Assembly: GCA_964481895.1 (NCBI GenBank)
Contig: CAYZUL010000003.1
Location: 9,294-73,293 of the forward strand
Origin: an uncultured Nitrospirota bacterium
GTDB lineage: Bacteria > Nitrospirota > Nitrospiria > JACRHA01
Reading direction: 5' to 3'
Length of the DNA stretch: 64,000 bases
The notes beneath the pieces are model-generated. The model ran no database searches, was not told where the DNA came from, and saw nothing but the letters and a program-made list of their open reading frames with translations. Positions 3,266-64,000 of the stretch are shown here, in pieces. The stretch's first letter is position 1, and each line of letters starts with the position of its first letter. The translations under genes were made by a program, and so were the position numbers.

Positions 3266-3277
3266 ATACCCACGGGC

Positions 3278-3425: not shown

Positions 3426-3447
3426 ATAAATAGAGGAGGATGTTCAA

Positions 3448-4850: not shown

Positions 4851-4924
4851 AGTCATGCTTGTTATTGAGTTTCGTTGGTTAGGAGAGGCGAGTTAAGAGC
4901 CAACCCATAACTTAGAAATGAGGG

Positions 4925-5305: not shown

Positions 5306-5314
5306 GGCGAATTC

Positions 5315-7330: not shown

Positions 7331-7440
7331 TCCTCAGCTGTACCGTTGAATTTAACAAAAAAATTACATCCACTTAACACAATATTAACTGTAAGGCTAT
7401 ATAGTAGTAGCATCAGACCATTAAAGATGAGGTTGGTCAG

Positions 7441-46894: not shown

Positions 46895-46942
46895 TACCAA
46901 TTCGAATTCAACAGGATACCAGGGCGGCGAGGAGGAGTTAGT

Positions 46943-47866
46943 ATGGAAAAGAGGATAAGTGATATCTTAAGCTGGTATGCCAGCGACAATCCAGGCACTA
47001 AAACCAACCTTGCCCGCATACTAAACCATGGAAAACTGGGTGGCACAGGAAGATTGGTTATCCTTCCGGTTGATCAGGGTTTTGAGCATGGCCCTGCGCG
47101 CAGTTTTGCACCCAATCCATCTGCCTATAACCCTCTATACCACTTTGAGCTCGCTATTGAATCAGGTTGCAGCGCATATGCAGCCCCCCTCGGATTTATT
47201 GAGGCCGGCGCAGCGGAGTATGCCGGAGAGATCCCGCTAATCCTGAAACTAAACAGCCATGACACCCTGACAGATGAAAAGGATCCCCTCTCGGCTCAGA
47301 CTGCAAGTGTACGTGATGCCCTGAGGCTTGGCTGTGCCGGTGTCGGATATACAATCTATCCCGGCTCGGCCTTCAGTCAGGAAATGTACGAGCAGCTTCG
47401 GGAGATTGCCGAGGAGGCCAGGAGTCTTGGTCTTGTCGTAGTAGTCTGGTCTTATCCGCGGGGCTCAGGTTTGACCCCGAAGGGTGAGACCGCGATTGAT
47501 GTCGTGGCCTATGCCACACAGATTGCCTGCCAGCTTGGGGCGCACATTGTCAAGGTCAAATTGCCGGCTGATCATATCGAGCAGGCCGCGGCCAGGAAGG
47601 TATACGAGACATACCATATACCTGTCAAGACCCCTGAAGACCGGGTCCGCCACGTTGTGCAGAGCGCCTTTGATGGCAGGCGGATCGTCATCTTCTCCGG
47701 CGGAACCAAAGAGGAGGACGAGGTCTTTTTTAGCCAGGTCAGGGCCATAAGGGATGGCGGCGGCTTTGGTTCGATCATCGGCCGCAATACCTTTCAACGT
47801 CCCAGGGAGGATGCATTAAGGTTTCTCGAAAGGGTAATGAAGATATATACCGGAGAAGCGGGATAA
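46943..47866 (+). CDS. fbaB: class I fructose-bisphosphate aldolase (DhnA/FbaB-type, DeoC/LacD family)
   Basis: 307 aa. VILPVDQGFEHGP and a Schiff-base lysine region (IVKVKL), typical of archaeal-type class I aldolases. The related AroA-prime function cannot be excluded. Confidence 0.55.
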   Translation: MEKRISDILSWYASDNPGTKTNLARILNHGKLGGTGRLVILPVDQGFEHGPARSFAPNPSAYNPLYHFELAIESGCSAYAAPLGFIEAGAAEYAGEIPLILKLNSHDTLTDEKDPLSAQTASVRDALRLGCAGVGYTIYPGSAFSQEMYEQLREIAEEARSLGLVVVVWSYPRGSGLTPKGETAIDVVAYATQIACQLGAHIVKVKLPADHIEQAAARKVYETYHIPVKTPEDRVRHVVQSAFDGRRIVIFSGGTKEEDEVFFSQVRAIRDGGGFGSIIGRNTFQRPREDALRFLERVMKIYTGEAG

Positions 47867-47889
47867 GGAATTTACTAAGGAGGTAGTAT

Positions 47890-50067
47890 TTGGAGCGTTT
47901 GAGGGTTGGTTTCCTTTGGCACATGCATCAGCCTTATTATAAGGATCCTCTCACCGGGGCCTATTCCGTACCATGGGTACGGCTCCATGGAATAAGGGCC
48001 TATTACGATATGGCCAAGTTGCTCCTTGATTTTCCCGATATCAGGGTTACAGTTAATTTCGTACCTTCCCTTCTTCTTCAGATCCTCGACTATCAGCAGG
48101 GCCAGGCCCGGGATATCTTTCTGGAGTATACCTTAAGGCCGGCTGCTGACCTGGAGGAGGCTGAACAGCGGTTTATCCTCCGATATTTCTTTATGGCCAA
48201 CTGGGAAACCATGGTAAAGCCTATGGCGAGATATTATGAACTCCTTCATGACCGGGGGGTAAATCCTGACGAGCAGACGCTGGATAGGGCTGTTTTCCAG
48301 TTTAAGGCACGGGATTACCTGGACATTCAGGTGCTTTTCAACCTCTCCTGGTTCGGCTTTAAGGCAGTGGAGGAGTTGCCGGCCATGTCTGAGCTGATTT
48401 CAAAAGGACGCAACTATACAGAGGATGATAAGGCCGTGGTTATCAGGCATCAGCATGATATCCTCCGGAGGCTGATCCCGCTTTACAGGGGTCTTGAGGA
48501 GACCGGACAGATTGAACTGACCACAAGTCCCTTCTATCATCCGATCCTGCCATTAATTTACGATACCAACATAGCCCGAAGATGTATGCCGTATTCGCCT
48601 TTACCGGACAGGTTTGAGGCGCCGGAGGATGCAAAGAACCAGATCAGAAAGGCCGTTGAATTTCATTCCCGCATTTTTGGGAAAAAGCCGCGGGGTTCAT
48701 GGCCTTCTGAGGGATCTGTCTGTCCTGAGGTGATCCCCTTCCTGGCAGATGCCGGCCTCCGCTGGATTGCAACAGATGAAGAGATCCTGCTTAATTCTAT
48801 GCCTATGCTCTCCCGGAAGGATGCCCTGTACAGGTCTTACATTGCTGTATCTGAAGGCCGTGAGATAGGTATAGTATTTCGCGATAAAGAGATCTCCAAC
48901 CTGATCAGCTTCACATTGGGAAAGATGGATGCAGCTGCTGCTGTCGACAGCCTGTTTAAGAGGTTTAAGGCCGTCCATGATATGTTTGAGAACAGGAATG
49001 AGTCTGCCCTGGTAACGATCATCATGGATGGAGAGAACCCATGGGAGTATTACCCTGAAGGCGGACGCCGCTTTCTGACTGAACTCTATTCCCGCCTGTC
49101 AAAATCCTCCGACTTCATGACCGTCCGGATTTCGGATGATCTTGACCGGCATCAGCCGCGGCAGCGGATCCATCACCTCTACTCCGGTTCCTGGATCAAT
49201 CATGATTTTGATATCTGGATCGGCTCCTTCGAAGAGAATCTGGCCTGGGAATATCTGAGCCGTACCCGCAGGGCCCTGCTCCCCCTTCTTAATGATTCCT
49301 CCGTGCCACAAGATAAGCGTGAAGCGGCCTGGGAGGCGATCTATGCAGCCGAGGGGAGCGATTGGTTCTGGTGGTATGGTGACGACTTCACGAGCGCACA
49401 GGAAGAGGAGTTTGACAGGCTTTTCCGGGGGCACCTTGCCGGGGCATTCCGGCATCTGGGCCTGGAGGTTCCCAAATATCTGTCCCGTTCGATCATCCAT
49501 CTTCATCCTGCAAAACATGTGATCGTGCCTGTAAATTTTATCCATCCTGTCCTTGACGGTAAGCGCACCACCTATTTTGAATGGCAGGGCGCAGGCCGCT
49601 ATGATGCCATGCTTCGCACATTGATCCCTGATGCCGGACCCCCGCTCTTATCGGCTATATACTATGGGTTCAACCTGACACACTGCTACCTCCGTATAGA
49701 CCCAATTGAAGGGGATGGCCCGGAGAAGCTGAAAGGATATGAGATCCATGTCCATTTCTTCGACGGACCTGAGGAATACAAATGCGTCATACCTAGTACC
49801 AACGGCATCCTTTCCCGATTTTTCATTAACCGGAGCTGGGATGGGATACGGTATGAACTGCTGGCAGAGGCAGATACCATTGCAATGGGACAAGTCTTGG
49901 AACTTGCAGTGCCCTTTGACGCCCTTGGATGGAAGCCGGGGGAGAGTTTCAATTTTATCGTAGAGGTCCTGGTGGATGGAAAGGTGATAGAGACCTATCC
50001 CCCTAAGGGTTATATACCAATTGAGGTGCCTGGTAAGGACTTTGAACAGATGATGTGGAGCGTCTGA
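47890..50067 (+). CDS. glycoside hydrolase family 57 protein (alpha-glucan branching/4-alpha-glucanotransferase-like)
   Basis: 725 aa. GH57 N-terminal signature GFLWHMHQPYY. TTG start with RBS AAGGAGG. Confidence 0.8.
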   Translation: MERLRVGFLWHMHQPYYKDPLTGAYSVPWVRLHGIRAYYDMAKLLLDFPDIRVTVNFVPSLLLQILDYQQGQARDIFLEYTLRPAADLEEAEQRFILRYFFMANWETMVKPMARYYELLHDRGVNPDEQTLDRAVFQFKARDYLDIQVLFNLSWFGFKAVEELPAMSELISKGRNYTEDDKAVVIRHQHDILRRLIPLYRGLEETGQIELTTSPFYHPILPLIYDTNIARRCMPYSPLPDRFEAPEDAKNQIRKAVEFHSRIFGKKPRGSWPSEGSVCPEVIPFLADAGLRWIATDEEILLNSMPMLSRKDALYRSYIAVSEGREIGIVFRDKEISNLISFTLGKMDAAAAVDSLFKRFKAVHDMFENRNESALVTIIMDGENPWEYYPEGGRRFLTELYSRLSKSSDFMTVRISDDLDRHQPRQRIHHLYSGSWINHDFDIWIGSFEENLAWEYLSRTRRALLPLLNDSSVPQDKREAAWEAIYAAEGSDWFWWYGDDFTSAQEEEFDRLFRGHLAGAFRHLGLEVPKYLSRSIIHLHPAKHVIVPVNFIHPVLDGKRTTYFEWQGAGRYDAMLRTLIPDAGPPLLSAIYYGFNLTHCYLRIDPIEGDGPEKLKGYEIHVHFFDGPEEYKCVIPSTNGILSRFFINRSWDGIRYELLAEADTIAMGQVLELAVPFDALGWKPGESFNFIVEVLVDGKVIETYPPKGYIPIEVPGKDFEQMMWSV

Positions 50068-52223
50068 TGGGGCAGGTCTTCCTTCTTCTTGGGATACACA
50101 ATCACCAGCCTGTGGGCAATTTTGAGCACGTATTCCGGGAGGCACACGATAGATGCTACAGGCCTTTTCTTGATCTCCTCATGGAACATAGGACTATTCG
50201 TGTGGCCATGCATTACAGCGGCCCTTTGTTCGATTGGATGGAAGGGAATGAACCTTCATTTATCGGCCGGCTAAAGGAGATGGCGAAAAAAAGACAGGTG
50301 GAACTCCTCACGGGCGGCTACTACGAGCCTATCCTTGCCTCAATACCGGCAAGGGACGGAATAGGGCAGATCGGGATGATGACGCAATATTTGCGAAACA
50401 GGCTTGGCGCTGATCCTAAGGGGCTCTGGCTTGCTGAACGAGTATGGGAGCCGTCTCTTCCCGGCCTGCTTAATTCTTGTGGTATCGGTTATTCCCTTCT
50501 TGATGATACACATTTTCAGTATACCGGGGTCAAGCCTGAGACCTTGCGCGGCTATTACCTGACCGAGCATGAAGGGAAGGTCCTGGCGATATTTCCCATA
50601 AGCAAAAGGCTCCGTTACCTAATCCCCTTCCGTCAGCCGGAGGAGACGATAGAATATCTTGATCAACTGAGAAAGGAGGGTCCGGTTGCTATTACCTATG
50701 CAGACGATGGTGAGAAGTTCGGCCTCTGGCCCGGTACATATCGCTGGGTCTATGACATGGGATGGATAGAGAGATTCTTTAACCTTCTGGAGAAAAACAG
50801 TGACTGGATCACTACCATTACCCCCGGCGAATACCTGGCCAAGGCTCCGTCTTCCGGCCGTATTTATCTGCCGACGGCCTCATATGAAGAGATGATGGAA
50901 TGGGCCCTGCCTACAGAGACTATCCTGGAAAGGGAGGCGTTAGTTGCGAAGCTTGAGGCCTCAGGCCTGAAGGGCGCGACGGAGGGTTTTCTGCGCGGCG
51001 GACTCTGGAACCATTTTCTCGTAAAGTATCCTGAGATCAATCTTATGCATAAGAAGGCCCTATATATAAGCGAGAAACTTTCCCTCAAGGAGAAGAGACC
51101 CGGCATTTCCATGACCAAATGGTTTGCGGAGGCGAGGCGGGAGCTTTACAAGGCCCAGGGAAACGATGTCTACTGGCATGGGCTGTTCGGCGGGTACTAT
51201 CTAAATTATCTTCGGCATGCCGTGCACGAGCATCTCATAAAGGCTGAGAGGCTTATCGACGCTAAGACTGATCCCCGAATCCGCCTGACAGAGACAGACC
51301 TGGACCGGGATGGCTACCAGGAATTTATAGCAGAAACAGACTGTTTAAACCTCTATCTAAAACCGGATGATGGCGCCACAGTTATTGAGATCGATTACAG
51401 AACAAAGCCACTCTGCCTTACACATGTCCCGATGCGGAGGCCTGAGGCATACCATAAAAAGATCAAGATAGATCAGCCGGCTGCCTCTTCCCCTTCTCCG
51501 GGCAGTATCCCCTCTATCCATGAGCTCTCATCTTTAAAACCATCTGTCGCTGGCAAGAGACTGATCTACGATCGCTTGCCGAGGTGGTCATTCCGGGATC
51601 ACATCCTGACGAACGATACAACCCTGGACCAATTTGAGGCATCGAATTACGCGGAGATAGGTGGTTTTTCTCATAAACCTTATCAAAAAATAGAAGCCGG
51701 GACCAACACAGATGGGATCGTACTTGCCTTCCAACATACAGACATGATACACGACCTCTCCCTGACGGCCAAAAAGGTTTATACTGTTTCGGCTTCAGAT
51801 GCCGCATTTACCGTTCAGTATGCCTTTAGCCATGGGCCAGAGCAGTCAGAGTCGCCGGATCAGAATGGCCATGGCCTCCTCTGGGGGGTGGAGCTTAATC
51901 TGACCCTGCTGGCCGGCTCTGACCCAAGGCGTTATTACAGCTTTCCCGGAAGGGGTGTAGAAGAAAAACTCCTAAATAGCAGGGGGGTCCTGGAGGATCT
52001 TACTGAGGCGCATCTGATAGATGAATGGCAGGGGGTTGATATATGCCTTGAATTTAAGCCGGCCGCGCGCCTCTGGAGATTCCCGATAGAAACGATATCG
52101 CAATCAGAAGAGGGATTAGAGTCGAACTATCAAGGTTCCTGCCTTGTCATCCTCTGGCCTTTGACCCTTCCACTAAAGGGGAAGCAGGAGCGTCTCATCA
52201 CCATGAAGATCTCCGGACTTTAG
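50067..52223 (+). CDS. glycoside hydrolase family 57 protein (second paralog, amylopullulanase/4-alpha-glucanotransferase-like with DUF1925/1926-like C-terminus)
   Basis: LLLGIHNHQPVGNF GH57 signature. ATG 50067 overlaps the upstream stop (TGATG). The ORF is open from GTG 50055. Confidence 0.8.
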   Translation: MGQVFLLLGIHNHQPVGNFEHVFREAHDRCYRPFLDLLMEHRTIRVAMHYSGPLFDWMEGNEPSFIGRLKEMAKKRQVELLTGGYYEPILASIPARDGIGQIGMMTQYLRNRLGADPKGLWLAERVWEPSLPGLLNSCGIGYSLLDDTHFQYTGVKPETLRGYYLTEHEGKVLAIFPISKRLRYLIPFRQPEETIEYLDQLRKEGPVAITYADDGEKFGLWPGTYRWVYDMGWIERFFNLLEKNSDWITTITPGEYLAKAPSSGRIYLPTASYEEMMEWALPTETILEREALVAKLEASGLKGATEGFLRGGLWNHFLVKYPEINLMHKKALYISEKLSLKEKRPGISMTKWFAEARRELYKAQGNDVYWHGLFGGYYLNYLRHAVHEHLIKAERLIDAKTDPRIRLTETDLDRDGYQEFIAETDCLNLYLKPDDGATVIEIDYRTKPLCLTHVPMRRPEAYHKKIKIDQPAASSPSPGSIPSIHELSSLKPSVAGKRLIYDRLPRWSFRDHILTNDTTLDQFEASNYAEIGGFSHKPYQKIEAGTNTDGIVLAFQHTDMIHDLSLTAKKVYTVSASDAAFTVQYAFSHGPEQSESPDQNGHGLLWGVELNLTLLAGSDPRRYYSFPGRGVEEKLLNSRGVLEDLTEAHLIDEWQGVDICLEFKPAARLWRFPIETISQSEEGLESNYQGSCLVILWPLTLPLKGKQERLITMKISGL

Positions 52224-52356
52224 ACCCTACTATCTCCAGTTCTTAGCTTTCAAATTCACTGTTAGAAATCTAATGTCTAGAATGGGAATACTGGTCTGGT
52301 TAATGGAACACCTCGTATCTGCCGATATAAATCTAAACGTACAAAATGGGGACTTG

Positions 52357-52385
52357 TTGATCTGATTATTGAAATCCCTTATAAT
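52357..52385 (+). promoter_or_regulatory. sigma70-like promoter (-35 TTGATC 52357-52362, 17-nt spacer, -10 TATAAT 52380-52385)
   Basis: Good hexamers with optimal spacing 49 nt upstream of the galT-like ATG. RBS GGGAGG. Confidence 0.5.
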
Positions 52386-52433
52386 CATTGAACTAAGACA
52401 AACTTACAGTAAAAAAGGGAGGTTATATCTGAT

Positions 52434-53450
52434 ATGCCTGAACTAAGAAAAGACCCCATCAGTCAACGATGGGTAATTATTGCTACTGAACGGAGCAAGC
52501 GTGCAAACCATTATAAATCTTCTGGTCCTCCTCCGCAGGTTGAGCCGAAGTTCTGCCCCTTCTGTTCTGGTAATGAGGATAAGACCCCGCCGGAGATACT
52601 GGCCTACAGGCCTGATGGATCGAGACCGAATACACCGGGATGGCATATAAGGGTTGTGGCGAACAAGTTTCCGGCACTCAGGATCGAGGGTGGATTAAAC
52701 CGGGAAGGGGAGGGGATCTACGACAAGATGAACGGGATAGGGGCCCATGAGGTGATCATTGAAACCCCGGACCATAAACAGACCATGGCAACCATGACAG
52801 ACAAGTATGTCGAGGATATCCTCTGGAGCTTCCGGGACAGGATCCTCGACCTTAAAAAAGACAGACGATTCCGGTTTATCCTCCTCTTTAAAAACCATGG
52901 TGAGGCAGCCGGCGCCAGTGTTGATCATTCCCACTCTCAGCTTATTGCGCTCCCGATTGTCCCAAGGAATGTGATCGATGAGCTTCGGGGGGCCAAGGAT
53001 TACTACGACCAGAAGGAGCGGTGTATCTTCTGTGATATTATCCGGCAGGAGACAGCCTCAAAGGTCCGTCTGGTCAGTGAAAATGATCATTATGTATGCA
53101 TTACCCCCTACGCAGCGCGTTTCCCCTTCGAGACATGGATCTTACCCAAAAAGCATGGCCCTTTTTTTGAGGATTCCCAAAAGTATGAATTCGAGGCCCT
53201 TGCCAGGATACTCTGTGATACCCTAAGACGCCTGGACAAGGCCCTCAATAATCCCCCTTACAATTTTATCATCCATAGTGCACCTGTCAATCAGGCATAT
53301 CATGATGAGGATTACTACCACTGGCACCTGCAGATCATGCCGCGCCTGACCAATATAGCTGGTTTTGAGTGGGGCACAGGTTTTTATATAAATCCTACAC
53401 CTCCTGAGGAGGCAGCGAAATTCCTCCGCGAGCTGGAGCTCAGGGATTAG
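52434..53450 (+). CDS. galT: galactose-1-phosphate uridylyltransferase-like HIT-family nucleotidyltransferase
   Basis: 338 aa. Zn-binding CPFCSGNE and a HxHxQ-type active site (SVDHSHSQL). Placement in a glycogen cluster suggests sugar-1-phosphate nucleotidyl transfer related to glucan metabolism. Confidence 0.75.
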   Translation: MPELRKDPISQRWVIIATERSKRANHYKSSGPPPQVEPKFCPFCSGNEDKTPPEILAYRPDGSRPNTPGWHIRVVANKFPALRIEGGLNREGEGIYDKMNGIGAHEVIIETPDHKQTMATMTDKYVEDILWSFRDRILDLKKDRRFRFILLFKNHGEAAGASVDHSHSQLIALPIVPRNVIDELRGAKDYYDQKERCIFCDIIRQETASKVRLVSENDHYVCITPYAARFPFETWILPKKHGPFFEDSQKYEFEALARILCDTLRRLDKALNNPPYNFIIHSAPVNQAYHDEDYYHWHLQIMPRLTNIAGFEWGTGFYINPTPPEEAAKFLRELELRD

Positions 53451-54922
53451 TGCGAATACTCTACGCCGCATCTGAGGTTACACCCTTTGCCAAGACGGGC
53501 GGCCTGGCTGATGTGGCCGGGGCCCTTCCCGCAGCGCTGGCAGGACTGGGACACGATGTCAAGGTGGTCATGCCGGGGTATAATGGTGTTAAGGATAAAC
53601 CTGGAAGATATACTCCGAGGGGTAATATAAAGGTCAGTCTTGCCGGCGGGGTTTATCCCTTTGATGTAGAGTCGGGCCGTCTGCCTGAAACCGGTGTCGA
53701 GATCCTGTTCCTGTCCAATAGCCGCCTCTTTGACCGGCCAGGACTGTATCAGGAGAAGGGGAAGGATTACCCTGATAACCTGGAGCGGTTTGCGGCCTTC
53801 AGCCGTGCCCTACTTGAGGTCCCGGGATTGTTGGACTGGTATCCGGATGTGATCCATTGCAACGACTGGCAGACTGCATTGATCCCTGCCTACATAAAGG
53901 CCCATTTCCCGGACGACCCCAGGTTTACCGGGACAGGCACCCTCTTTACTGTCCATAATCTCGGCTACCAGGGGCTTTTCCCCGCTTCGGAATATCCAAA
54001 ATTATCCCTCCCCCCTGAATTCTTTACGCCGGAGACCCTTGAATTTTACGGAAAGGTAAATCTCCTCAAGGCAGGTCTTGTGTTTGCCGATATCCTGACT
54101 ACGGTAAGTCCTACATATAGCCATGAGATCCAGACACCCCAGTTTGGGTGCGGCCTGGAGGGGATCCTCCACGAAAGGAGCAATGATCTTTTCGGTATAA
54201 TAAACGGGGTCGATTATCAGCGATGGGATCCGGCCCATGATCCCCACCTGGGACAGCCTTATGATGCCCGGCAGTTGCAGGGCAAACGTCTTTGCAGGAG
54301 GCAACTCCAGAAGGCATCTAAACTGCCAATAAAAAAGGTACCCATCATCGGGATGATCACAAGGCTTACCGAGCAGAAGGGGGTAGACCTGGTAATAGAG
54401 GTGCTCGATGAATTGATGATGCTTGACATCCAGGTAGTCATCCTGGGCGAAGGAGACCCGGATATACACCAGAAACTCAATGAGGCGATGGGCCGTTATC
54501 CCAAAAAGCTTTCAGTCCATATCAACTTTGATGAGTCTCTGGCCCATCTGATCGAGGCCGGATCGGATATTTTTTTAATGCCTTCCCGCTATGAACCATG
54601 CGGCTTAAACCAGTTATACAGTTTAAGGTATGGGACAGTCCCTATTGTCCGGAAGACAGGCGGGCTGGCAGACACCATTATAGATGCCACGCCATCCAAC
54701 ATCGCTGCCGGCAAGGCAAATGGTTTCCTTTTCGAGCATGCGAGTTCCCATGAACTTCTTACAACTGTGAGGCTGGCCATTAACTTGTTTCATGAAACGG
54801 ATCTCTGGCTCCAATTGATCCGAAATGGAATGATGGCAGATTTCTCATGGGGCCGCTCCGCCAGGGAATATGAGAGGCTCTATCGTCTTGCCATTGATAA
54901 GGCGACAGATACTGGAAAGTAA
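53450..54922 (+). CDS. glgA: glycogen synthase (ADP-glucose type)
   Basis: 490 aa. MRILYAASEVTPFAKTGGLADVAGALP N-terminus. GT-B fold. GTG start overlapping the galT-like stop (TAGTG). Confidence 0.9.
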   Translation: MRILYAASEVTPFAKTGGLADVAGALPAALAGLGHDVKVVMPGYNGVKDKPGRYTPRGNIKVSLAGGVYPFDVESGRLPETGVEILFLSNSRLFDRPGLYQEKGKDYPDNLERFAAFSRALLEVPGLLDWYPDVIHCNDWQTALIPAYIKAHFPDDPRFTGTGTLFTVHNLGYQGLFPASEYPKLSLPPEFFTPETLEFYGKVNLLKAGLVFADILTTVSPTYSHEIQTPQFGCGLEGILHERSNDLFGIINGVDYQRWDPAHDPHLGQPYDARQLQGKRLCRRQLQKASKLPIKKVPIIGMITRLTEQKGVDLVIEVLDELMMLDIQVVILGEGDPDIHQKLNEAMGRYPKKLSVHINFDESLAHLIEAGSDIFLMPSRYEPCGLNQLYSLRYGTVPIVRKTGGLADTIIDATPSNIAAGKANGFLFEHASSHELLTTVRLAINLFHETDLWLQLIRNGMMADFSWGRSAREYERLYRLAIDKATDTGK

Positions 54923-55035
54923 TAAGAATGTCTTGTGATGCGATGTCCTAATCCCTCACTTCACCTCCGGCGGTGATATCACAAGATTCGTATCAGAACC
55001 TATCCTGACTTGAAAAGAGCCGCCATTTCAAATAA

Positions 55036-58000
55036 TTAAGAAATAAAATCAATGGCAACTAGCCTAAGCAATTCAGGCTTGTATGGCGGAATCTCTTTCT
55101 TTTCAAAGGTAAACTTTCCTTCAAGGAATTCTGATAATTCCCTTAAAAGGCCCTTCCAATTTTTATGATTATTCTTATAATCTCTCCAGATAGCCCTTAA
55201 TCCTTGAAGCCTCTTTTTTGTAAGGCTTATGGTTAAAAGCCTTTCCTTTACCTCTTCCCACTTATCTTCAAGCGCTTTTTCTTCAGGAAAGTCCAATATA
55301 TGTTCATCTATTTGCAGATCTATCTCTCTAATGAGATTTGATACAAACTTCTTGCTCCTGTCTTGGCTTAATTCAGAAAATGTGGAATCCACCCCTTCCC
55401 TCTGTTCTGCCTCTTTATAAGTTTCCTCTATTTCTATAATCACCTCTCTATTTACCTCATAGACCCTTTCAAAGAAATCAGGTATCACCCTTTTCTCTTC
55501 AGGAGGACAGGAGATAAAATCTAAGATCCTTGTCTTGTTTGTAATCTTCTCCCCTGTTGAAAGATCATAAAGATACCAGAAATGGAAGTCCTCACCATAT
55601 TTATAATAGAAAAAGATCCCTTTTATATCTCTCTTGAGACCGCTATGAATCCCAAGGGGGATAGATTCAAGCCCTTCAAGCCCCTTTGTCCTAAGATAGT
55701 TTTTCAAAGGCTGATAGAATCTCTCTCCGCCGCCAAAGACATCTCTTTCAAGTTCATCAAATATCATCTTATCCCGCTTCCTAATCCTTCTTATAACGCC
55801 AAATACTTTTGGATTAACCTCTTCTCCAAGAACTGTCTGATCAAGCCCGACTGCATTGTCGATATTCCGTATCTTTTTCTGGAGGATCTCCATAAGGCGC
55901 AAAAGGTCTTCTAGCTCCTCCTCCGGGAAGAAATTGTATACATAGATCTCATCAAAGGTAGAACCTATTCTATCTATTCTGCCTGCCCTCTGGATCATCC
56001 TGGTAGGGTTCCAGTGGAGGTCATAATTGATAAGATACTGGGCCTTTTGAAGGTTCATCCCCTCAGAGAGGACATCCGTGCTCATTAAGATATTAATCTC
56101 CCCCTTCATAAAGTCATCAACAATCCTCGTGCGTCTGGTGGCAGAGGCTACCCTGCCTGAAATCTTCTCTATTCTAATCTTTGAAAATAGGCTGTCTTCG
56201 GATATATTTTTATGGATATAATCATATCCATAACAATATATAATCAAGGGTATCTGCATAATATGTGAATACAACAACCTGTCCTTTTCTGCCCAATTCC
56301 AGGAGTCTCTTCTTTAGCTCCTTAAGCTTTGCATCTGCCTCCGCATCAATCGTCTCGACCATCCTGCCCATTTCATTGAATAGGGCTATATCCTTATCAA
56401 TTTCACCAAAGAGTTCTTCTTTTTTATAATCTTCAAGATTGATATCTTCCAGTTCATCAACAAATTCTTCAGCAGTCTCCTCATCCAGGTTGGAGATATA
56501 TTTATAAAAGGTTTTTTTAGTGAGGAGCTTACCCTTCATTAGATATCCCTTAAATTTCTCCAGAAAGGCCAGATGATTGGAGACGCTCTTTCTAAATGCA
56601 TCAACACTGCTTTCAAGCCTCTTTAGCAGAATGGTCCTGAAGATCCCTTCCAGGGCCACCATCCTGCCCAATGCCATCTCCTCATCTTTGGAAAGCCTCT
56701 CTTTCTTTCTATATTCGAGTACCCGATAATAGGCCATGGTCAATCTTTCACTTATAATCCTGGATATATCTCTATAGAGCCCCTGATAGGCATTATCGAG
56801 CTTGTAATTGATATTCTCCAATATCCTTTTGGGAAAGACGATCTTTTTCCCATAAATCTCTGCGTCAGGATAGTTCTCTCTGACATAATCCCTTGTCCTC
56901 CTGATTGATATCTCGTTCATGAGATCATTTAGGAGTGTAGGATCGCCCTCTTTATCAATATCCTTAAAAAACTTAAAGAGGCTCGGTATCCCCTCCTTGA
57001 GAAAGATATTCTGATCCATAAAGGTGAGCAGCATTATCTGCCAGTAAAGATCCCACAGGGTATTATTAATGGGTGTGGCAGTAAGAAATAAGATATAAGG
57101 CCTCCTCCCATTCCCTCCTATATGATTGATAATGGTAAATAGATTTTCCCAACGATTAGAAAGGGGATTTCTAAAGTTGTGGCTCTCATCTACCACTATC
57201 AGGGAAACCTCATCAAGATTACCTCCTACTGAATGTCTTGCTTTATCCAGAAAATCAAGAGATGCAAGCTCTTCCTGGGATAGGATGCTCTCAGACAGGA
57301 TAAGGTCTTTAACCTCATTTCTCCACATCTCCCTTAATTGGGCAGGGCAGATAATAAGAAACCTCTTTCTTTTATAAAAACCAAACTCCTCTATGATCTT
57401 TTTGGCTATCCATGTCTTACCCAGGCCTACTGCATCTGCTATCATGCAGGCCTTATATTTTTTAAGACGGGTAAAAACCCTCCTTACGGCATCTTCCTGA
57501 AACTCTGCAAGGTTAACCAGTGAGGAAGGTCTGGCATCTTTCTCCTTTTCTTCATCATCAATTTTTAAGTCGTCTTTTTGTAATTCATAGAGGGACTTTA
57601 TATAAACCTCAAAAGGGCTATACTCCTTAGTCCCGAAACGGGAGGAATCAAGGAGTTCAATCAGTCTTGCCTTGAAATCAACCGCCTCATTCCAGAATTT
57701 GTCAAACCAGTTTGTCCGCACATATTGCGCCTCTGACTCAAGAGAAACAGAGTTTAACTCCGTGTTATGCGTAAGACCTGATGGTGTGAAGTTTGATGAG
57801 CCTACTACCACAAGACTATCGAATATATATGCTTTACCATGGAAAAATTCCTTATCGTAGAGCCTGACCTCCACATTATCTTTATTGAGAAACCCTATTA
57901 TCTCCTTGGCCAGGTTATTTTTATCTTTAGAGAGATCAAACCCTTCAACCTCCTCCTTAATCATTTTCAAAAGCAGATCCCCAAGCGTAGTCTCATTTTT

Positions 58001-58195
58001 TATCTCTGGTGCTTTCCCCAGGAGAAGCCGGAATCTTTTGACCCCCTGGATATTCTCTTTTATTAAGGCATAGGCCTGGATATTAAAAAAGGCGGTAGCA
58101 ATATCAAATTGGGTATTTGGTATCTCCTTCAGGACATCATTAAGGAAGGTAGATAACTTTACATCGCTGTTGTCTATGATTTTCTTTGGGATCAT
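55036..58195 (-). pseudogene. PLD-family nuclease (HKD) + SNF2-family helicase fusion gene, disrupted by a frameshift from a 22-bp insertion
   Basis: The N-terminal ~180 aa carry the HKD motif FHGKAYIFDSLVVVGSSNFT. SNF2 motifs follow (ADAVGLGKT, LIVVDESHNFRN). The helicase C-terminal domain (ILMSTDVLSEGMNLQ...QRAGRIDRIGS) continues in another frame, as ORFs 56222-58195 and 55036-56277. Removing the 22 nt between the 8-bp direct repeats ATATAATC (56216-56223 and 56238-56245) restores ...TLDYIHKNISED.... Confidence 0.75.
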
Positions 58196-58340
58196 ATATC
58201 TCCAATCGCCCTATGCTTGACAACCCGATAGCATTGTATCATACTATAAATGAGCGATAAGACCGTTGTGGGTTCCTTTGGCGTTCCCTTCCGTAGGTTG
58301 GCCAAGCCAGAGGGCACGCACCCACAGGGCACGCTCATTT

Positions 58341-58973
58341 TTATGGTAAATAAACGTCATCGTATTTGATCTTACTCTTAAAAACGTCAAACCATTCCTT
58401 ATCATCTTTTTCGTATTTCCGGAAGATCCCCCAGGAAAATAAATCAACTGCCTGAAGAGGCAGGTCTTCATGGGAAAGATGGTGATCTATATCGAGTGGG
58501 ATTCTTGGTTCTATTCTGCCGCTTAACTGACGGATCAGGTAGTCATCGAACTCTCTTATTTCTTTCTTACTCTTGCTCCTGTCTATTACAAGTCCGACTC
58601 TTACCGAGGCATTTGTAAAAGGAATGACATCAAGAACTTTTCTTGCGATAAAGTTGTAAACCCTGTCCTTTTTCTGTGACAAATAATCATATACCCGTCT
58701 TTTGTTGAGCGTGAGGGCGTAAAGCTCGAAGGGGACAGCTTCAACATGCCGGTAAAAATATCTCTTTATTTCTATGGATTGCTTTGACCCTTTCAGTTCA
58801 GTCTGTTGTTTCGGGAATTTACTTTGCAGGGTTCTTTTTACAGCCTTAGCTATTTTCTTCCTGTTTTCCATGTCATGTACCAGCATTACAGTAACCGTAA
58901 AATACTTCGACGGTTTCTTTGCGAAGAAGTCGAACCCCAGGTCGCCGCTTTCATCAAGGTACAAATATAGCAT
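58341..58973 (-). CDS. DUF3800 family protein
   Basis: 210 aa. N-terminal MLYLYLDESGDLGF, the hallmark DUF3800 motif. Confidence 0.6.
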   Translation of the reverse strand: MLYLYLDESGDLGFDFFAKKPSKYFTVTVMLVHDMENRKKIAKAVKRTLQSKFPKQQTELKGSKQSIEIKRYFYRHVEAVPFELYALTLNKRRVYDYLSQKKDRVYNFIARKVLDVIPFTNASVRVGLVIDRSKSKKEIREFDDYLIRQLSGRIEPRIPLDIDHHLSHEDLPLQAVDLFSWGIFRKYEKDDKEWFDVFKSKIKYDDVYLP

Positions 58974-59039
58974 TTATTTCCTATGTTTTATTGGAATACT
59001 CCTTGTAGATATCTCTTAAAAATTCATGACCCCTTGAGC

Positions 59040-61946
59040 CTAAGCAAATTCTCTTTTCCTTAGTTCAACATCTTCATCAGCTCGCTTTTGTTCGTATGTA
59101 ATTCTCCTGTCTAAATAATCTTCATATTTTCTAACAAAGGATTGTATAGTCTTGTTCTTGTCTTTTTCCCAGTCCTGGACTTCTTGCCGTTTGGCTCTAT
59201 AGGCTTCCACAAAACCATACTCACCAATTACGACACCGGTCTGTGACAAGATAATAAACATTTCTTTCATATATTTATCACTGTGATATCTTTTTATAAA
59301 TTCTTTGCACACACCGTACAAAAAAGGCTCTCCCTTATATGCCCTCAAAACTGAAATAACGATCTTTGCATTCTTATCCCCGCCCTTCATAATCAGATTT
59401 ATCATTTCACTCTCAAGTGATTTATCGAAAGCCGGAAAGATTGCCTGCAGGAAATGGCTCGCTTCCCATTGGAACAACCAGTCTTTTTCTGCAAACCAAC
59501 CTACTATTTCTCGGACTACTATATTGGCGTGCTTCTGAAGCGGCTTATTTATTATGTGCAAACTGAACGGTATTGCATCATATCTTTCCCCTTCTTGTTT
59601 ATGTAGACGCTTAGAGACCCGTTTTCTAAAAAACTGTATCAGCCTTTTAGGATACTTCTCAGCAACTGGAGATAGTATTTCCTCGGCGTGATAGTCGATA
59701 TCCGGCGCAAAGATCAAGCTGTCAAGTATAGCCACAAGATCTTTCTCAGTGAGGGCATCGAGAAGTGACGGTTTTCTGAACCATACACCTCTGATCCAAT
59801 GGTAGTTCCTTAATTCAGCCAGTTTCTTGATAGCCCCAACGAAGACCTTCTTAAGCTTCGTGGACTTCGGATATTTCGGATAATTTCGGACAATCGCGCT
59901 TACGATACGGGAAAGAGCATCTGCGTCATTATTCTCACTTGCCCTGTTGTATATACCTTTCAGAAGAGGGGTATCGATTTCCTCCACATATTCAAGCAAA
60001 TCTGCACATATAGATAGTCTCTTATTCTCGCCAATCCACTTTTTCAATATGTCTTTAGCGTTTATGGATGACTCGCCTTTCCATAAACCCGCAAGCATGT
60101 GAATTAAGCAAGGATCAAGCTCTTTTTCATTTTGATAGAGCAACATTAAGGCAAACTCTGTTTTTTGTTTTCCAATTTCGAACAGGAACATATTAAAATA
60201 TTGGAATTCACCCCAACTTACGGGATAATTTTTGATGATAGCTAAAATCCTGCTTTGCCAATCCTCATAAGAGCTCTTATTTATGCTATCAATCAACACT
60301 TGAAGTTTCTCTTTGCGTAACTTCTCTGTTTCTTTAACGTCTAATCCAGCGGCAACCCCATAATCGTAACCGACAAGAATCCTGTATGTTTCGTATTCTT
60401 TATTCGAAGAAATGTTTGACCGAAGGGAATAGGCTTTATCATTCAAGCCCTTTCTATCAAAAAACTGTGACTGTTCTTCAATGTCTTTAATAATCTCATT
60501 TTCCGCTGTGGGCAAAATCTCACTATAAAATTCAATTAGCATATTGGTATTCTCAACGACCATTTGCAGGAGGTTATCTCCGTAGTTCCCTTGGTGTGGT
60601 GTCTGCGACGCATCTTGTAATACTTGTAATACCCTGATCCGCTGGGTTATCTCTTTCATGTCGTGATATAACCGTTTTAGCAGGTTTATAGTACGAGTTC
60701 TGATACTTTTCAACTCATCGTTCACAGGAAGCGGCCCATAATGAAATGTGACAGTCTTGTAGTCAGACATCGAAGTGCCTTCAAAAGAAGGCTTTAGCAA
60801 CTGGCTGGCGATTTCCGTAACAGCCTCGAAATATTCGATAATTTTTGTGTTATTCCACTTCTCCATTTTATCCAAGACAAAAAGCTGTGGGGAATAACCA
60901 ATTTTCTGAATCACATGCAAGTTATAACTCGCAAGCTTACTCAAACCCTCTATAGCTTTCTTCTTTACAGTGGGATTTGAATCGCCTGAGAGCCGAATAA
61001 GCAATTCAAATATTTTTTCGGTATGGAAGTATTTCAATTCACTTAAGATATCCAAACAGATTTTTGCTATGTCAGCATAGTGCTTTCCTTCAAATTCTCC
61101 AAGTGCTGTTTTTATGGGTTCTGGAACGCTCCCTTTTGCATTTTGCAGAGCGCTGTCTACGATGGTGATGATATCGAATTTCTTTGGTGTCTTGTCTCCG
61201 AATTCTTTAACGAATTGATGCAACAGGGAGAGCTGTTCGTACAAGTCATTATTAGACGCTGATTTCATGATCCCTTCTAAGAATCGAACGTCAAATACTG
61301 TCTTGCCTTGTTTAAGTTTCTCGAACTGCTTATAAATGAACTCAAAGCTATAGCTCGCCTGCCTGATGTGATTTTGCATCACATCTGAGAACTGTTTTTT
61401 CAAGGATTCGAACGCAGGCCGGTCAAATACCGATAACTCCTTTTGGGGTTTATATATAATGTCATGTGCCATTTCGGACCATGCATGATAAAGGACGGTC
61501 GTAAGTTGAATCTCGCATCTCAAGCCTGTGAATTTTACGTATTCAGTTAGGTCCAGCCTGTCCTTATTCAGGTGAACAACAAGATGGTGAGCGTTATAGT
61601 CATCAGGGGAGAATTTAGGAACATTCTTGATGACCGAAAACTCTTTGTAGACGTATTCAATAAATCGCCCTATATCACTATCAAGATAAAAAATAACTCT
61701 GCAACCGGCAAGATCGTCCAATTCTGCAAAGGGTATATTTTGCAGTTTTGAGTTGTCTCTAATTTTTCGCTCCAATGATTCTGGGTCTTTTTCGCGTGCG
61801 GATACCACCTGGTAGTGAAATCCGTTATTCTTCAATAAGGTTTCTAATATGAATTTCACCGCGCTTGAAAAATCCTTATAAGTGAGCTGGATCCTTTTAT
61901 ACTGCTCCAGAAGTGATGTAATCTTTTCCTTGCTATCCACCCTCAC
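59040..61946 (-). CDS. RelA/SpoT-like (RSH/toxSAS-type) nucleotidyltransferase domain fused to ~770-aa HEAT/ARM-like alpha-helical repeat region
   Basis: 968 aa. Residues ~40-170 carry REKDPESLERKI (R.K...S..K), DDLAGCRVIFYLD and CEIQLTTVLYHAWSEMAHDIIYK (ExQxRT..xHxWxExxHxxxYK), the (p)ppGpp-synthetase-fold signature. The remainder is helical repeats (e.g. NPTVKKKAIEGLSKLA). Low GC. 4-nt overlap with the upstream methyltransferase gene. Confidence 0.7.
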   Translation of the reverse strand: MRVDSKEKITSLLEQYKRIQLTYKDFSSAVKFILETLLKNNGFHYQVVSAREKDPESLERKIRDNSKLQNIPFAELDDLAGCRVIFYLDSDIGRFIEYVYKEFSVIKNVPKFSPDDYNAHHLVVHLNKDRLDLTEYVKFTGLRCEIQLTTVLYHAWSEMAHDIIYKPQKELSVFDRPAFESLKKQFSDVMQNHIRQASYSFEFIYKQFEKLKQGKTVFDVRFLEGIMKSASNNDLYEQLSLLHQFVKEFGDKTPKKFDIITIVDSALQNAKGSVPEPIKTALGEFEGKHYADIAKICLDILSELKYFHTEKIFELLIRLSGDSNPTVKKKAIEGLSKLASYNLHVIQKIGYSPQLFVLDKMEKWNNTKIIEYFEAVTEIASQLLKPSFEGTSMSDYKTVTFHYGPLPVNDELKSIRTRTINLLKRLYHDMKEITQRIRVLQVLQDASQTPHQGNYGDNLLQMVVENTNMLIEFYSEILPTAENEIIKDIEEQSQFFDRKGLNDKAYSLRSNISSNKEYETYRILVGYDYGVAAGLDVKETEKLRKEKLQVLIDSINKSSYEDWQSRILAIIKNYPVSWGEFQYFNMFLFEIGKQKTEFALMLLYQNEKELDPCLIHMLAGLWKGESSINAKDILKKWIGENKRLSICADLLEYVEEIDTPLLKGIYNRASENNDADALSRIVSAIVRNYPKYPKSTKLKKVFVGAIKKLAELRNYHWIRGVWFRKPSLLDALTEKDLVAILDSLIFAPDIDYHAEEILSPVAEKYPKRLIQFFRKRVSKRLHKQEGERYDAIPFSLHIINKPLQKHANIVVREIVGWFAEKDWLFQWEASHFLQAIFPAFDKSLESEMINLIMKGGDKNAKIVISVLRAYKGEPFLYGVCKEFIKRYHSDKYMKEMFIILSQTGVVIGEYGFVEAYRAKRQEVQDWEKDKNKTIQSFVRKYEDYLDRRITYEQKRADEDVELRKREFA

Positions 61947-64000
61947 ACGCTCCTCGCCTTCTCAAGCCTGTTCTTGACCAGCTCGCATACCGCCCAATAG
62001 ACCTCGTTTCTTTCTTCTTGTGTCAGACCAAGGATGTCGAAGACAATATCATGGAGGGCCTTGCGGTCAGGAAGGGGATTGGGTGTTTGCTCGCGGATGG
62101 GACGGGTCGGGTTGATGCGAAGTTCTTCGAAGACCGAATTAATCCTTCGTTTACCAAGTTCTGAATCTATGAGTTCCTCTATCTTGCTCCTCTGCTTCTT
62201 TTGCAACAGAGACGGTGCAACTATAATCTCAGCCCGCCTCAAATCCTCAACAAGCAATCTTACAGCCCCTCCACCTAATCCCTTTCTTCCAAGAACCTCA
62301 ACAAAAAACGCTGTCAATGTACTATTTAGGAGACCACACAAGATTGTAGATATTGAATCATCTTTTGGGACTATGCCATGAAAGTTATGAGTAAAATAGA
62401 GATTGTGAGTATTGTAATGACATAAATGCCTATCACCTCTAATATCTACCCATAACAATTTTGCATGTTTTAACTCTCTTCTTATTCCTTCGATCAATAT
62501 CAATAGGGTATCAGTATCATTTTCCCCAAAAATAATTTTTTCGATTTCTCTTGGGCTTTTGAGAACGGGCAGCGTTTCATATTTTGCAGAGTAACCTTCA
62601 CTTTTCGGAATCAGGATTTCGCTATTGAGTCCTTTTCGGCTCCATGCAACTGTGATTACCTTGCCAATGTGAGGTTGAATGGCTGTCAATTTATCATTGC
62701 CCTTTTCAAGTATTGTATAGAATATATCCGGCGCCCTCAGATATTTTCCTCCCCATTTGTTCCCCTCATATTTACCGGTGAGGAATTTGTCTTTCAATAA
62801 TGACTGAGATTGCTTCGTCGCTCTGCTCCTCGCAATGACATCCTTTTCTTCTGACTTCTGAGTTTCTTCGGGATACTCCCATCCGTCATCCAGAAGCATC
62901 TCCTGTTTTACCGGATAGACCCTGTAGGTATCTGTTTTCCGAATGGCATCTGCCATTTCTATCTCAAGAAGGTTTTTTACGTTTACAACTTCCTCAAAGG
63001 GCCTTTTGAACATAACAAATCGGGCTGTCTCTTCTAATGCGGGCCATGTACCCTGCACACGACCGACATCTGGCGGCCCGAAGATGGCAATAATCGTATT
63101 CACGTCCGCATGTTCAAAGCTCCTCTTTGCCTCGTTATCATAGACCGCCTTGATTGGGCAGTACTTGAGGAGGAACTCCTGAAGATCCGCTCCATACCCC
63201 ACATCGAGCCATGAATTAGAGGTGATAAAGCAGAATGTGCCCTTGTCATTAAGAAGCGAGAGGCCGTGGAAATAGAAATAGATGTAATAATCGCTTTTTT
63301 TATCAAGCTTCTTTATGAAGGGGTAATGAACCTGTATCGAGCTAAGAAGTTTTTCCTTGTATCCCCTCTTGTCCTCAAGGGTCACCTCTGCCTTGAGCTT
63401 ATTTGGAGGGGCGATCTTCTCCTGCCTTACATATGGCGGATTACCGATGACAATATCAAAGCCCCCCTTATCGCCAAAGATCTCTGCAAAGTCAATGTCC
63501 CAGACAAAGGGTTTTTGTCCTGGCAACTGGATTTTCCTTTTCGTCTCCAGCAAATGTTCGATCTCCTGCCCTTTGGCCTTTATCTGTTCTTCAAAGAGAG
63601 AGGGCGAACGACCGTTCGCCCCTACATCAAACATCTCTATCTGGATTTTTCTTTTTTCGCCTTTTAATGCCTGGATCTCCTTTTGGAGGCTTACAATCTT
63701 CTCATCCAGTATCTCGCCAAAGATCCTTAGCTCTTCCTGTAAAAGGCCCTCAGCGCTCTTAAATTTGCCTGTCGGGTCATTGTTGTAGTATTTCTCCTTC
63801 TCCGCCTTCAGGGATGTAAGCCTTTTCTTGATGGAAGGAGAAAGCTTACTGTCCCTGACATGGAGGTTTACTCCTCCTACCTCTTGTACTAATGAATCTC
63901 CTATCCTGAGCCTTAAGTTGAGGTTTGGAAGAAGTGGGAAGAGCTTTCTCTGCTCATATGGGATATCCTCTTCGATGATTAACTGAAGCCATAGCCTAAG
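61943..64000 (-). CDS. N6-adenine DNA methyltransferase, Eco57I/TaqII/PglX-like gamma class (5' end lies beyond the window)
   Basis: The reading frame stays open on the minus strand from 63634 to the window edge (...RIGDSLV...). DIVIGNPPYV motif IV (D/N-PPY) and a C-terminal TRD-like region (LLNSTLTAFFVEVLGRKGLGGGAVRL...AP) are typical of type IIG/IIL RM and BREX PglX methyltransferases. Confidence 0.75.
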   Translation of the reverse strand, partial: LRLWLQLIIEEDIPYEQRKLFPLLPNLNLRLRIGDSLVQEVGGVNLHVRDSKLSPSIKKRLTSLKAEKEKYYNNDPTGKFKSAEGLLQEELRIFGEILDEKIVSLQKEIQALKGEKRKIQIEMFDVGANGRSPSLFEEQIKAKGQEIEHLLETKRKIQLPGQKPFVWDIDFAEIFGDKGGFDIVIGNPPYVRQEKIAPPNKLKAEVTLEDKRGYKEKLLSSIQVHYPFIKKLDKKSDYYIYFYFHGLSLLNDKGTFCFITSNSWLDVGYGADLQEFLLKYCPIKAVYDNEAKRSFEHADVNTIIAIFGPPDVGRVQGTWPALEETARFVMFKRPFEEVVNVKNLLEIEMADAIRKTDTYRVYPVKQEMLLDDGWEYPEETQKSEEKDVIARSRATKQSQSLLKDKFLTGKYEGNKWGGKYLRAPDIFYTILEKGNDKLTAIQPHIGKVITVAWSRKGLNSEILIPKSEGYSAKYETLPVLKSPREIEKIIFGENDTDTLLILIEGIRRELKHAKLLWVDIRGDRHLCHYNTHNLYFTHNFHGIVPKDDSISTILCGLLNSTLTAFFVEVLGRKGLGGGAVRLLVEDLRRAEIIVAPSLLQKKQRSKIEELIDSELGKRRINSVFEELRINPTRPIREQTPNPLPDRKALHDIVFDILGLTQEERNEVYWAVCELVKNRLEKARSV

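Follow-up and report, generated by a model that had tools for sequence, protein, structure and literature searches.

The final part of a 64,000-nucleotide (nt) stretch of DNA from an uncultured Nitrospirota bacterium (contig CAYZUL010000003.1; the whole stretch is referred to here as the window) carries a putative defence island that begins beyond the glycogen (glg) gene cluster. The island boundary is a convergent spacer of 113 nt (54923-55035) between the stop codon of glgA (53450-54922, plus strand; TIGR02095, 569 bits) and that of a gene encoding a PLD nuclease-SNF2 helicase fusion, hereafter PLD-SNF2. From position 55036 to the end of the window all long open reading frames (ORFs) lie on the minus strand, in agreement with the co-orientation reported in a first-pass annotation of this sequence, and in the order of transcription they encode a DNA methylase, a protein of 968 amino acids (aa) that joins a RelA/SpoT-like head to a large alpha-solenoid (the RelA/SpoT-solenoid), a DUF3800 protein, and PLD-SNF2. 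The first-pass annotation had taken these genes for a single system with an unusual four-gene combination. Comparison with approximately 170 related loci (cited below by their L numbers where needed) does not bear this out: the RelA/SpoT-solenoid has no conserved partner, and the position that it occupies in the window holds unrelated genes elsewhere. We place a probability of roughly 0.68 on the reading that what is visible here belongs to a horizontally acquired island of defence type, and that the apparent four-gene system is a mosaic built of a two-gene frame (methylase and PLD-SNF2) and two independent passengers. One of its genes is broken, and an RNA in it had gone unnoticed.

The reported drop in guanine-plus-cytosine (GC) content to approximately 40% after glgA is upheld, with a GC fraction of 0.39-0.42 across the island (55000-62000) as compared to 0.50-0.53 in the glg cluster and a window mean of approximately 0.46, and the shift starts in the spacer. 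The glg cluster (46000-54000) is itself richer in GC than the remainder of the window (0.42-0.49 at positions 1-44000), and the step at the border therefore exaggerates how far the island departs from the genome average. The other boundary of the island lies outside the window, as does the N-terminus of the methylase.

The methylase gene (61943-64000, minus strand) remains an open frame up to base 64000, placing the C-terminal 685 aa of its product within the window and the N-terminal ~540 aa beyond it. Its identification as a partial N6-adenine DNA methylase of the Eco57I/MmeI type was correct: the translation matches Pfam Eco57I (1e-27), contains an NPPY motif, and includes a weak match to a TaqI_C-type specificity region. 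Over residues 1-436 it shares 72% identity with the methylase of L089, which is full-length at 1,223 aa, and full-length frame methylases in related loci measure approximately 1,218-1,281 aa. The PADLOC profiles REase_MTase_IIG and DrmMI gave only partial matches to the methylase, the latter at 4e-12 over no more than approximately 130 aa. With regard to an endonuclease domain of the Type IIG/IIL kind in the same polypeptide, no domain was recognised within aa 1-420 of the L089 methylase, which stands in for the N-terminus that the window lacks, and a PDB search with this homolog found no sequence relative.

At the opposite end of the visible island lies PLD-SNF2, previously described as one fusion gene. 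The domains of the fusion are present as described (PLDc_2, SNF2-related and Helicase_C), but they are not carried by one intact gene, which is split through a frameshift by a 22-nt insertion, GATTATATATTGTTATGGATAT (56224-56245, minus strand). The N-terminal piece (657 aa; 56222-58195, minus strand; Pfam PLDc_2, SNF2-rel_dom and ResIII) comprises the PLD/HKD nuclease and the N-lobe of the SNF2 ATPase, and ends at the resulting premature stop; its translation contains the HKD motif (HGKAYIFD...GSSN), a Walker A motif (GLGKT) and DESH. The C-terminal piece, an ORF of 413 aa (55036-56277, minus strand), holds Helicase_C (2.7e-20) followed by a C-terminal extension, and matches the PADLOC profiles 'HKD+Snf2' (1e-23) and DrmD (3e-23). 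SNF2 motif VI is likewise intact. The insertion opens with the octamer GATTATAT, which occurs again directly after it (56216-56223) with 14 unrelated bases between the two copies; its appearance is that of a short duplication or of the footprint left by an excision. Deletion of the 22 nt in silico yields an ORF of 1,045 aa, the normal length for the family, and in a DNA alignment the insertion is absent from the intact homologs of L089, L085 and L081. The family itself has at least 7,549 relatives (E <=1e-20), and nearly all of the 120 best-scoring of these that were listed are approximately 1,047 aa long. Restriction has probably been lost in this genome while the passengers are intact, and the methylase may persist here as an orphan.

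That the methylase and PLD-SNF2 belong together is indicated by their pairing in other genomes. Close loci were defined as those in which PLD-SNF2 is at least 50% identical to that of the window and is preceded by at least 1 kb of upstream DNA (n=25); a metagenome scan contributed 80 PLD-SNF2 loci. The methylase lies upstream on the same strand as PLD-SNF2 in 23 of the 25 close loci, and the spacing within these 23 pairs falls into distinct classes: the two genes abut or overlap in seven (gap <=20 nt), are 154 nt apart in one, and are separated by 0.46-5.8 kb of inserted ORFs in the remaining 15. The gap in the window is 3.7 kb. Approximately ten distant loci keep the two genes as co-oriented neighbours, some in reverse order, and the reversed yet adjacent arrangement (PLD-SNF2, then methylase) characterises a more distant clade (L104, L108, L109, L136, L167, L077). 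These data agree with the restriction-modification (RM)-, BREX- or DISARM-like logic that the first-pass annotation had attributed to a methylase accompanied by a helicase/nuclease. No description of a two-gene system composed of a methylase and PLD-SNF2 was found in the literature searched, which is not proof that none exists, and PDB searches returned no close solved structure for either frame protein. We infer that the frame is a widespread, RM-like pair with a putative role in defence. In the mechanism that we propose, the methylase, using its own target-recognition region, would mark host DNA at adenines, and PLD-SNF2 would translocate along unmarked DNA at the expense of ATP and cut it. 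Each PLD-SNF2 chain contains one HKD motif, and by analogy the protein therefore probably functions as a dimer.

Several observations concern variation in the frame genes themselves. An ORF in L097 that appeared to fuse the methylase and the helicase was rejected as a fusion, the two ORFs overlapping in different reading frames. In L105 the methylase match is spread over approximately 5 kb of DNA (2490-7553) as compared to a gene of approximately 3.7 kb, so that this gene may itself harbour an insertion. In L079 the C-terminal ~48 codons of the methylase are present twice (1-144 and 3999-4142), one copy directly before the RelA/SpoT gene and the other after a BrnT/BrnA pair and before remnants of PLD-SNF2; this duplication suggests cassette exchange by recombination through the 3' end of the methylase gene. 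Lastly, the methylase genes of L089 and L175 are followed immediately (L089, 4206-5523; L175, 1044-2361) by genes for a 354-aa PLD-only protein, with a weak NgoFVII-like match, and a DUF2924/RAMA protein of approximately 78-100 aa. RAMA stands for 'restriction enzyme adenine methylase associated', and the two proteins may serve the frame as an additional nuclease and as an accessory that binds DNA.

The content of the inserted segments reveals what the junction of the two frame genes accommodates. The 66 ORFs found between frame genes include defence genes, namely those for a Dsr1-like TIR protein (3.7e-148), a CBASS cyclase (1.4e-101), AbiLi and AbiEii, along with the PADLOC candidates PDC-M04, M38, M19, S01 and S05. 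Genes of toxin-antitoxin type are also present (ParE, Fic, DUF433/DUF5615 and nucleotidyltransferases), as are SLFN_AlbA_2/HATPase_c_4, AAA_14/DUF4143 and TIR-domain proteins and both of the window's own cargo types, DUF3800 and RelA_SpoT. The junction is a recurrent insertion site for defence and toxin-antitoxin modules. Defence genes embedded within modification systems have been described previously (Payne et al., 2024, 10.1101/2024.01.29.577857), as have the Hma hotspot (PMC11232893) and the placement of TgvAB in Type I RM systems (PMC11411939). Embedding in itself is therefore a known phenomenon, and what is new here, as far as could be found, is this particular frame and the solenoid family. 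The RelA/SpoT gene is, as had been proposed, embedded, and literally so, between the methylase and PLD-SNF2: it is nested between genes of the same strand, its slot holds known systems elsewhere, and its relatives are also found outside any such frame, an arrangement that qualifies it as cargo embedded in a putatively defensive frame.

Evidence for the independence of the RelA/SpoT-solenoid comes from loci at which the frame is lacking. No homolog of the methylase, DUF3800 or PLD-SNF2 was detected near its relatives at 74 genome loci when searched by tblastn with window and full-length queries (1e-6), and all-versus-all clustering of the neighbouring ORFs recovered neither a shared neighbour family nor a conserved antitoxin-like gene. 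A Pfam/PADLOC census of 145 flanking ORFs at 43 loci returned integrases, assorted DNA methylases, Type I RM subunits, conjugation genes, and helix-turn-helix (HTH)/S24 regulators; these 43 neighbourhoods are of the kind seen in mobile elements and defence islands, and no partner is constant among them. Among proteobacterial loci encoding relatives of approximately 27% identity (L021-L048), clusters of small ORFs do recur, of ~166 aa in 14 loci and ~202 aa in ten; they were seen in this sub-clade alone and could encode a clade-specific partner.

Association with genes of the four types is confined to a clade in which the RelA/SpoT gene is at least 72% identical. Conservation of the methylase-RelA/SpoT neighbourhood, raised by the first-pass annotation as a point to be checked, is accordingly limited to members of this clade and is absent from the 74 genome loci. 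Within the clade, L089 and L175 present a methylase, further genes, the RelA/SpoT gene and then a DUF3800 gene of another subtype, again with extra genes; the arrangement in L089 ends in an intact PLD-SNF2, and the L175 contig stops before that position. In L077 the order is PLD-SNF2, VapBC, methylase and RelA/SpoT. Remnants of the methylase, DUF3800 and PLD-SNF2 surround the RelA/SpoT gene in L076, L174, L178 and L079, together with inserted toxin-antitoxin pairs; the RelA/SpoT gene is intact in L076, L178 and L079 and 3'-truncated in L174 (851 aa). In L002 and L176/L177, which belong to the same close clade, the frame is wholly absent. Because the gene is found at frame-free loci and intact among the remnants of the frame, it is autonomous and outlives the frame around it.

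The second passenger is a DUF3800 protein of 210 aa (58341-58973, minus strand), the identity of which had been recognised correctly (Pfam PF12686, 4.4e-12, 47.4 bits versus a cutoff of 21, profile positions 1-149). The inventory of four genes had, however, missed a fifth element that accompanies it, a DUF3800-V RNA (Rfam RF02964; 58247-58341, plus strand) scoring 71.4 bits against a gathering threshold of 37.4 over the full model (1-96). This RNA lies within the 145 nt that separate DUF3800 from PLD-SNF2. It runs antisense to the operon and converges on DUF3800, abuts the DUF3800 stop codon, and sits 52 nt from the PLD-SNF2 start codon. A predicted promoter-like site, TTGACA-17 nt-CATACT (58217-58245, plus strand), matches ten of 12 consensus positions and ends 1 nt before the RNA; its TTGACA (-35) box is invariant, and identically positioned, in L081 and L089. 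Those two loci carry further copies of the RNA (L081, 8589-8684; L089, 9841-9936) in the same place and orientation, upstream of PLD-SNF2 and beside DUF3800 genes. The three RNAs are approximately 90% identical and keep their predicted structure, whereas the window-type and L081/L089-type DUF3800 proteins are only 23% identical, far below the value for their RNAs. Cargo loci without DUF3800 lack the RNA, and it is for this reason that we consider the RNA to travel with DUF3800 and not with the helicase. Since remnants of the window-type DUF3800 are found also in L076, L085 and L178, DUF3800 is a frequent tenant of the slot.

A 161-aa ORF without a Pfam or NCBIfam match is always located after the L081-type DUF3800 gene and before the RNA (L081, 8018-8503; L089, 9279-9764; L175, 6117-6602), and this conserved ORF may be a third part of the L081-type module. 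An Rfam match to flavi_FSE was dismissed as chance (E 0.73; 19.8 bits versus a gathering threshold of 43). DUF3800 has been assigned an RNase H-like fold (PMC10910872), and published work links it to non-coding RNAs without describing its function. The RNA of the window is of the same kind as the DUF3800-associated motifs reported earlier, in which an RNA lies beside a DUF3800 gene on the opposite strand (Weinberg et al., 2017, RF02964); the novelty of DUF3800-V here is its context, with three copies each situated just upstream of PLD-SNF2 within a cargo slot. In our proposal, DUF3800 would act on, or together with, its separately transcribed antisense RNA as a protein-RNA pair.

The RelA/SpoT-solenoid gene (59040-61946, minus strand) starts with GTG and overlaps the methylase stop codon by 4 nt. 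Its earlier description as a 968-aa RelA/SpoT-HEAT fusion is borne out by Pfam, which places RelA_SpoT at aa 51-169 with 44.7 bits as compared to a cutoff of 27, and by an AlphaFold2 (AF2) model built from 41 homologs (pLDDT 87.7), in which a nucleotidyltransferase head of the small-alarmone-synthetase-like kind (approximately aa 1-215) is followed by approximately 750 aa of HEAT/ARM-like alpha-solenoid. Comparison of this model with known folds indicates that the solenoid resembles MMS19, CAND1 and karyopherins. The head belongs to the RelA/SpoT homolog (RSH) synthetase superfamily, with a Pfam score above gathering, a synthetase fold, and catalytic motifs that are invariant across the alignment (R51/K53, D78-x2-G-x-R83, Y117/H121, E145-x-Q147 and H161/Y165). 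Full-length members of approximately 970 aa occur in Nitrospirota, Thermodesulfobacteriota, Patescibacteria, Legionella, Bacillus-like Firmicutes, Proteobacteria and several archaeal phyla. The family is thus scattered patchily over bacteria and archaea, its members remaining 40-50% identical from one domain of life to another, and this pattern points to horizontal spread. A phage-borne origin is not supported, a single partial relative having been found in viral contigs.

A search with the solenoid only, against 1.84 billion cluster representatives, produced 1,182 matches, of which 594 reach E <=1e-30. The 150 best comprise 53 proteins with the RelA/SpoT head (~977 aa), approximately 27 with an N-terminal DUF4365 head (~1,030-1,086 aa), and 69 that either are headless or begin with a brief extension (~794 aa, fragments included). 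Examples of such siblings are P0242, P0249, P0263 and P0268 with the DUF4365 head, and P0248, P0254 and P0298, among others, without a head. We take DUF4365 to be a nuclease-like domain of the PD-(D/E)xK-type fold. Immune sensor-effectors typically combine one large, invariable domain with enzymatic heads that can be exchanged, and it is mainly for this reason that the RelA/SpoT-solenoid is proposed as a candidate single-protein sensor-effector. In such a protein the solenoid would hold the N-terminal pyrophosphokinase off until a trigger binds; the released head would then act either on tRNAs, by pyrophosphorylating their 3' ends, or as the source of a toxic alarmone, (p)ppGpp or (pp)pApp, and growth arrest would follow, as with CapRel and other toxic alarmone synthetases. 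No RelA/SpoT-HEAT defence protein was described in the literature searched, an absence that is not proof, and both the frame and the solenoid family appear, as far as could be found, to be uncharacterised.

The statement of the first-pass annotation that no described system could be matched stands, in that no PADLOC or NCBIfam model claims the set; these collections gave sub-threshold matches to DrmD, PglX and 'phospholipD_antiphage' only, and no system-level or equivalog match. One of the closest among the named systems is Class 1 DISARM, in which an ATPase of the SNF2 type is likewise encoded in a co-oriented cluster, together with possible counterparts of the other parts of the frame, a PLD nuclease (DrmC) and a large N6-adenine methylase of the Eco57I family (DrmMI); DISARM DrmD is the best NCBIfam/PADLOC match for the window helicase. 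The scores are nevertheless far from the respective cutoffs (NF038317 DISARM_DrmD, 195 bits versus 610; NF038318, 82 versus 950), and the PLD domain of the frame, which PADLOC matches to DrmC at 3e-5, is fused to the SNF2 protein. In addition, DrmA (a YprA-like helicase) and DrmB (DUF1998) were found in none of the related loci that were surveyed. Neither they nor PglZ/BrxC occur among the Pfam-annotated neighbours in L077, L081, L085 and L086, and L089, as surveyed by tblastn and partial Pfam scans only, likewise showed no DrmA/DrmB, the DNA upstream of the window's own methylase lying past the window end and outside this check. BREX PglX, MmeI and the Eco57I Type IIG/IIL enzymes share with the frame methylase its domain family (Eco57I, MmeI_Mtase, M_Eco57I_C/TaqI_C) and its size of approximately 1,220-1,280 aa. 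The related loci lack PglZ and BrxC, however, and the match to BREX_1_MTaseX is 54 bits against a cutoff of 500; unlike in Type IIG/IIL enzymes, the partner of the frame methylase appears to be the PLD-SNF2 protein and not an endonuclease in cis. Type ISP enzymes such as LlaGI and LlaBIII combine a nuclease, a superfamily 2 (SF2) translocase, a methylase and a target-recognition domain, and act on unmodified DNA. The frame would offer the same set of functions and is like them in logic, distributing these over two polypeptides with a PLD/HKD nuclease in place of an Mrr-like one. The logic of the frame thus resembles that of a split Type ISP enzyme or, alternatively, of DrmMI plus a DrmC-DrmD fusion without DrmA and DrmB.

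In its architecture the island resembles systems in which unrelated defence or toxin-antitoxin modules are nested between modification genes of the same strand, as described by Payne et al. (2024) and for Hma, TgvAB, and PrrC in EcoprrI. [quoted passage not shown] The RelA/SpoT-solenoid differs from CapRel and other toxic small alarmone synthetases (toxSAS) in two respects. Firstly, it carries a HEAT-like solenoid of approximately 750 aa as compared to the small antitoxin domain of CapRel. Secondly, no conserved antitoxin gene lies beside it. The RelA/SpoT-like N-terminal domain is matched by PADLOC PDC-S33 as well (aa 27-157, E 1.1e-12), but within that profile of 349 positions the N-terminal domain alone aligns and there is no solenoid. 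The PDC candidates of PADLOC were themselves derived from embedding in BREX, DISARM or RM systems (Payne et al., 2024).

A number of observations weigh against the mosaic reading or against a role of the solenoid protein in defence. Within the clade of at least 72% identity, the RelA/SpoT gene directly follows the methylase or its remnant in seven to eight of ten contexts; in one of these, L077, the methylase is only 31% identical and the frame is reversed. In the window the two genes overlap by 4 nt, and some coupling between them, in function or in expression, may therefore exist. PDB sequence searches with the head returned housekeeping RelP/RelQ small alarmone synthetases only, with no toxSAS among the results, and comparison of folds does not discriminate between an enzyme of alarmone synthesis and one that modifies tRNA. 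The solenoid is approximately as conserved as the catalytic head, and because the sensors of many phage-sensing proteins are, by contrast, fast-evolving, such even conservation fits a conserved cellular partner as well. Viral contigs yielded one partial RelA/SpoT-solenoid relative only. Additionally, the split of PLD-SNF2 recurs in Logan assembly L001 (SRR4343435), which possibly derives from the same reads and would then not be independent.

The first group of these observations lends itself to a reading in which the RelA/SpoT-solenoid is autonomous by origin and serves here as a guard of the restriction-like pair, by analogy with PrrC in the EcoprrI hsd locus: silenced by the methylase or the complex, it would be released by a phage anti-restriction factor. 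Its position immediately after the methylase has been kept in the window, L079/L080, L174 and L077 (in the last despite the 31% identity and the reversed frame), the overlapping start and stop codons suggest translational coupling, and a precedent exists in PrrC, which according to Payne et al. (2024, 10.1101/2024.01.29.577857) lies within a Type I RM system in nearly all cases. Such a guard function is unlikely, given that approximately 43 full-length relatives in other phyla have no methylase neighbour, that the same is true of L002 and L176/L177 in the close clade, that other genes separate RelA/SpoT from the methylase in L076, L178 and L089, and that the RelA/SpoT gene persists where the methylase is a remnant (intact in L076 and, apart from its truncated 3' end, in L174).

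A second alternative holds that the RelA/SpoT-solenoid is a regulated alarmone synthetase of stress physiology, in which the solenoid is an interaction scaffold, and that it merely hitch-hikes in mobile DNA. The kinship of its head with housekeeping RelP/RelQ in both sequence and structure, its strong and even conservation over the full length, its rarity in viral contigs, and the lack of a conserved adjacent antitoxin-like gene all speak for this alternative. We nonetheless regard it as improbable in view of the patchy spread of the family at 40-50% identity between domains of life, the integrases, RM genes and conjugation genes among its neighbours, a slot that is otherwise home to known defence genes, sibling proteins that join this solenoid to a nuclease-like DUF4365 head, and the N-terminal domain shared with PDC-S33, a candidate that was found by embedding.

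That all four genes and the RNA constitute one integrated defence system, in which the methylase would mark self, PLD-SNF2 would restrict, and the RelA/SpoT-solenoid and DUF3800 would be obligate subunits or second-line effectors, is very improbable: the co-oriented and tightly packed genes, the 4-nt methylase/RelA-SpoT overlap, the renewed occurrence of the four gene types in L089, where PLD-SNF2 is intact, and in L175, and the remnants of the set in L076 and L178 speak for it, but the methylase and PLD-SNF2 abut in seven to eight close loci and enclose unrelated cargo elsewhere, the RelA/SpoT-solenoid stands without the other genes at all 74 genome loci and survives decay of the frame, L089 contains extra cargo genes, and the DUF3800 proteins of the window and L089, being only 23% identical, represent different modules. 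Strictly, neither of the outcomes that the first-pass annotation had held to be decisive against its proposal was found, these being a match to a described system and homologs that are never co-localised elsewhere.

The mosaic reading has consequences that extend beyond this locus, in that a mosaic can pass for an exotic four-gene system, which bears upon the annotation of such islands in general. It might further be the case that the frame is a widespread and as yet uncharacterised restriction-like defence system of two genes, the internal junction of which is a dedicated landing pad for other immune genes, that the solenoid defines a new family of single-protein sensors in bacteria and archaea, and that DUF3800 and its RNA form an immune or toxin-antitoxin-like pair; taken jointly, these proposals are tentative, and we would sooner doubt than accept them as a whole. 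If they are true, an abundant two-gene frame could be used as a new 'embedding' bait with which to find further immune genes, and the defence cargo slot, together with a conserved promoter-like site belonging to the RNA, would give a testable genomic setting to the DUF3800 RNA motifs, the function of which has been open since 2017. Likewise, the solenoid family would join a RelA/SpoT effector to a large helical-repeat sensor, an idea that its swappable heads make testable, and the RelA/SpoT version would represent a CapRel-like growth-arrest effector equipped with a completely different sensor.

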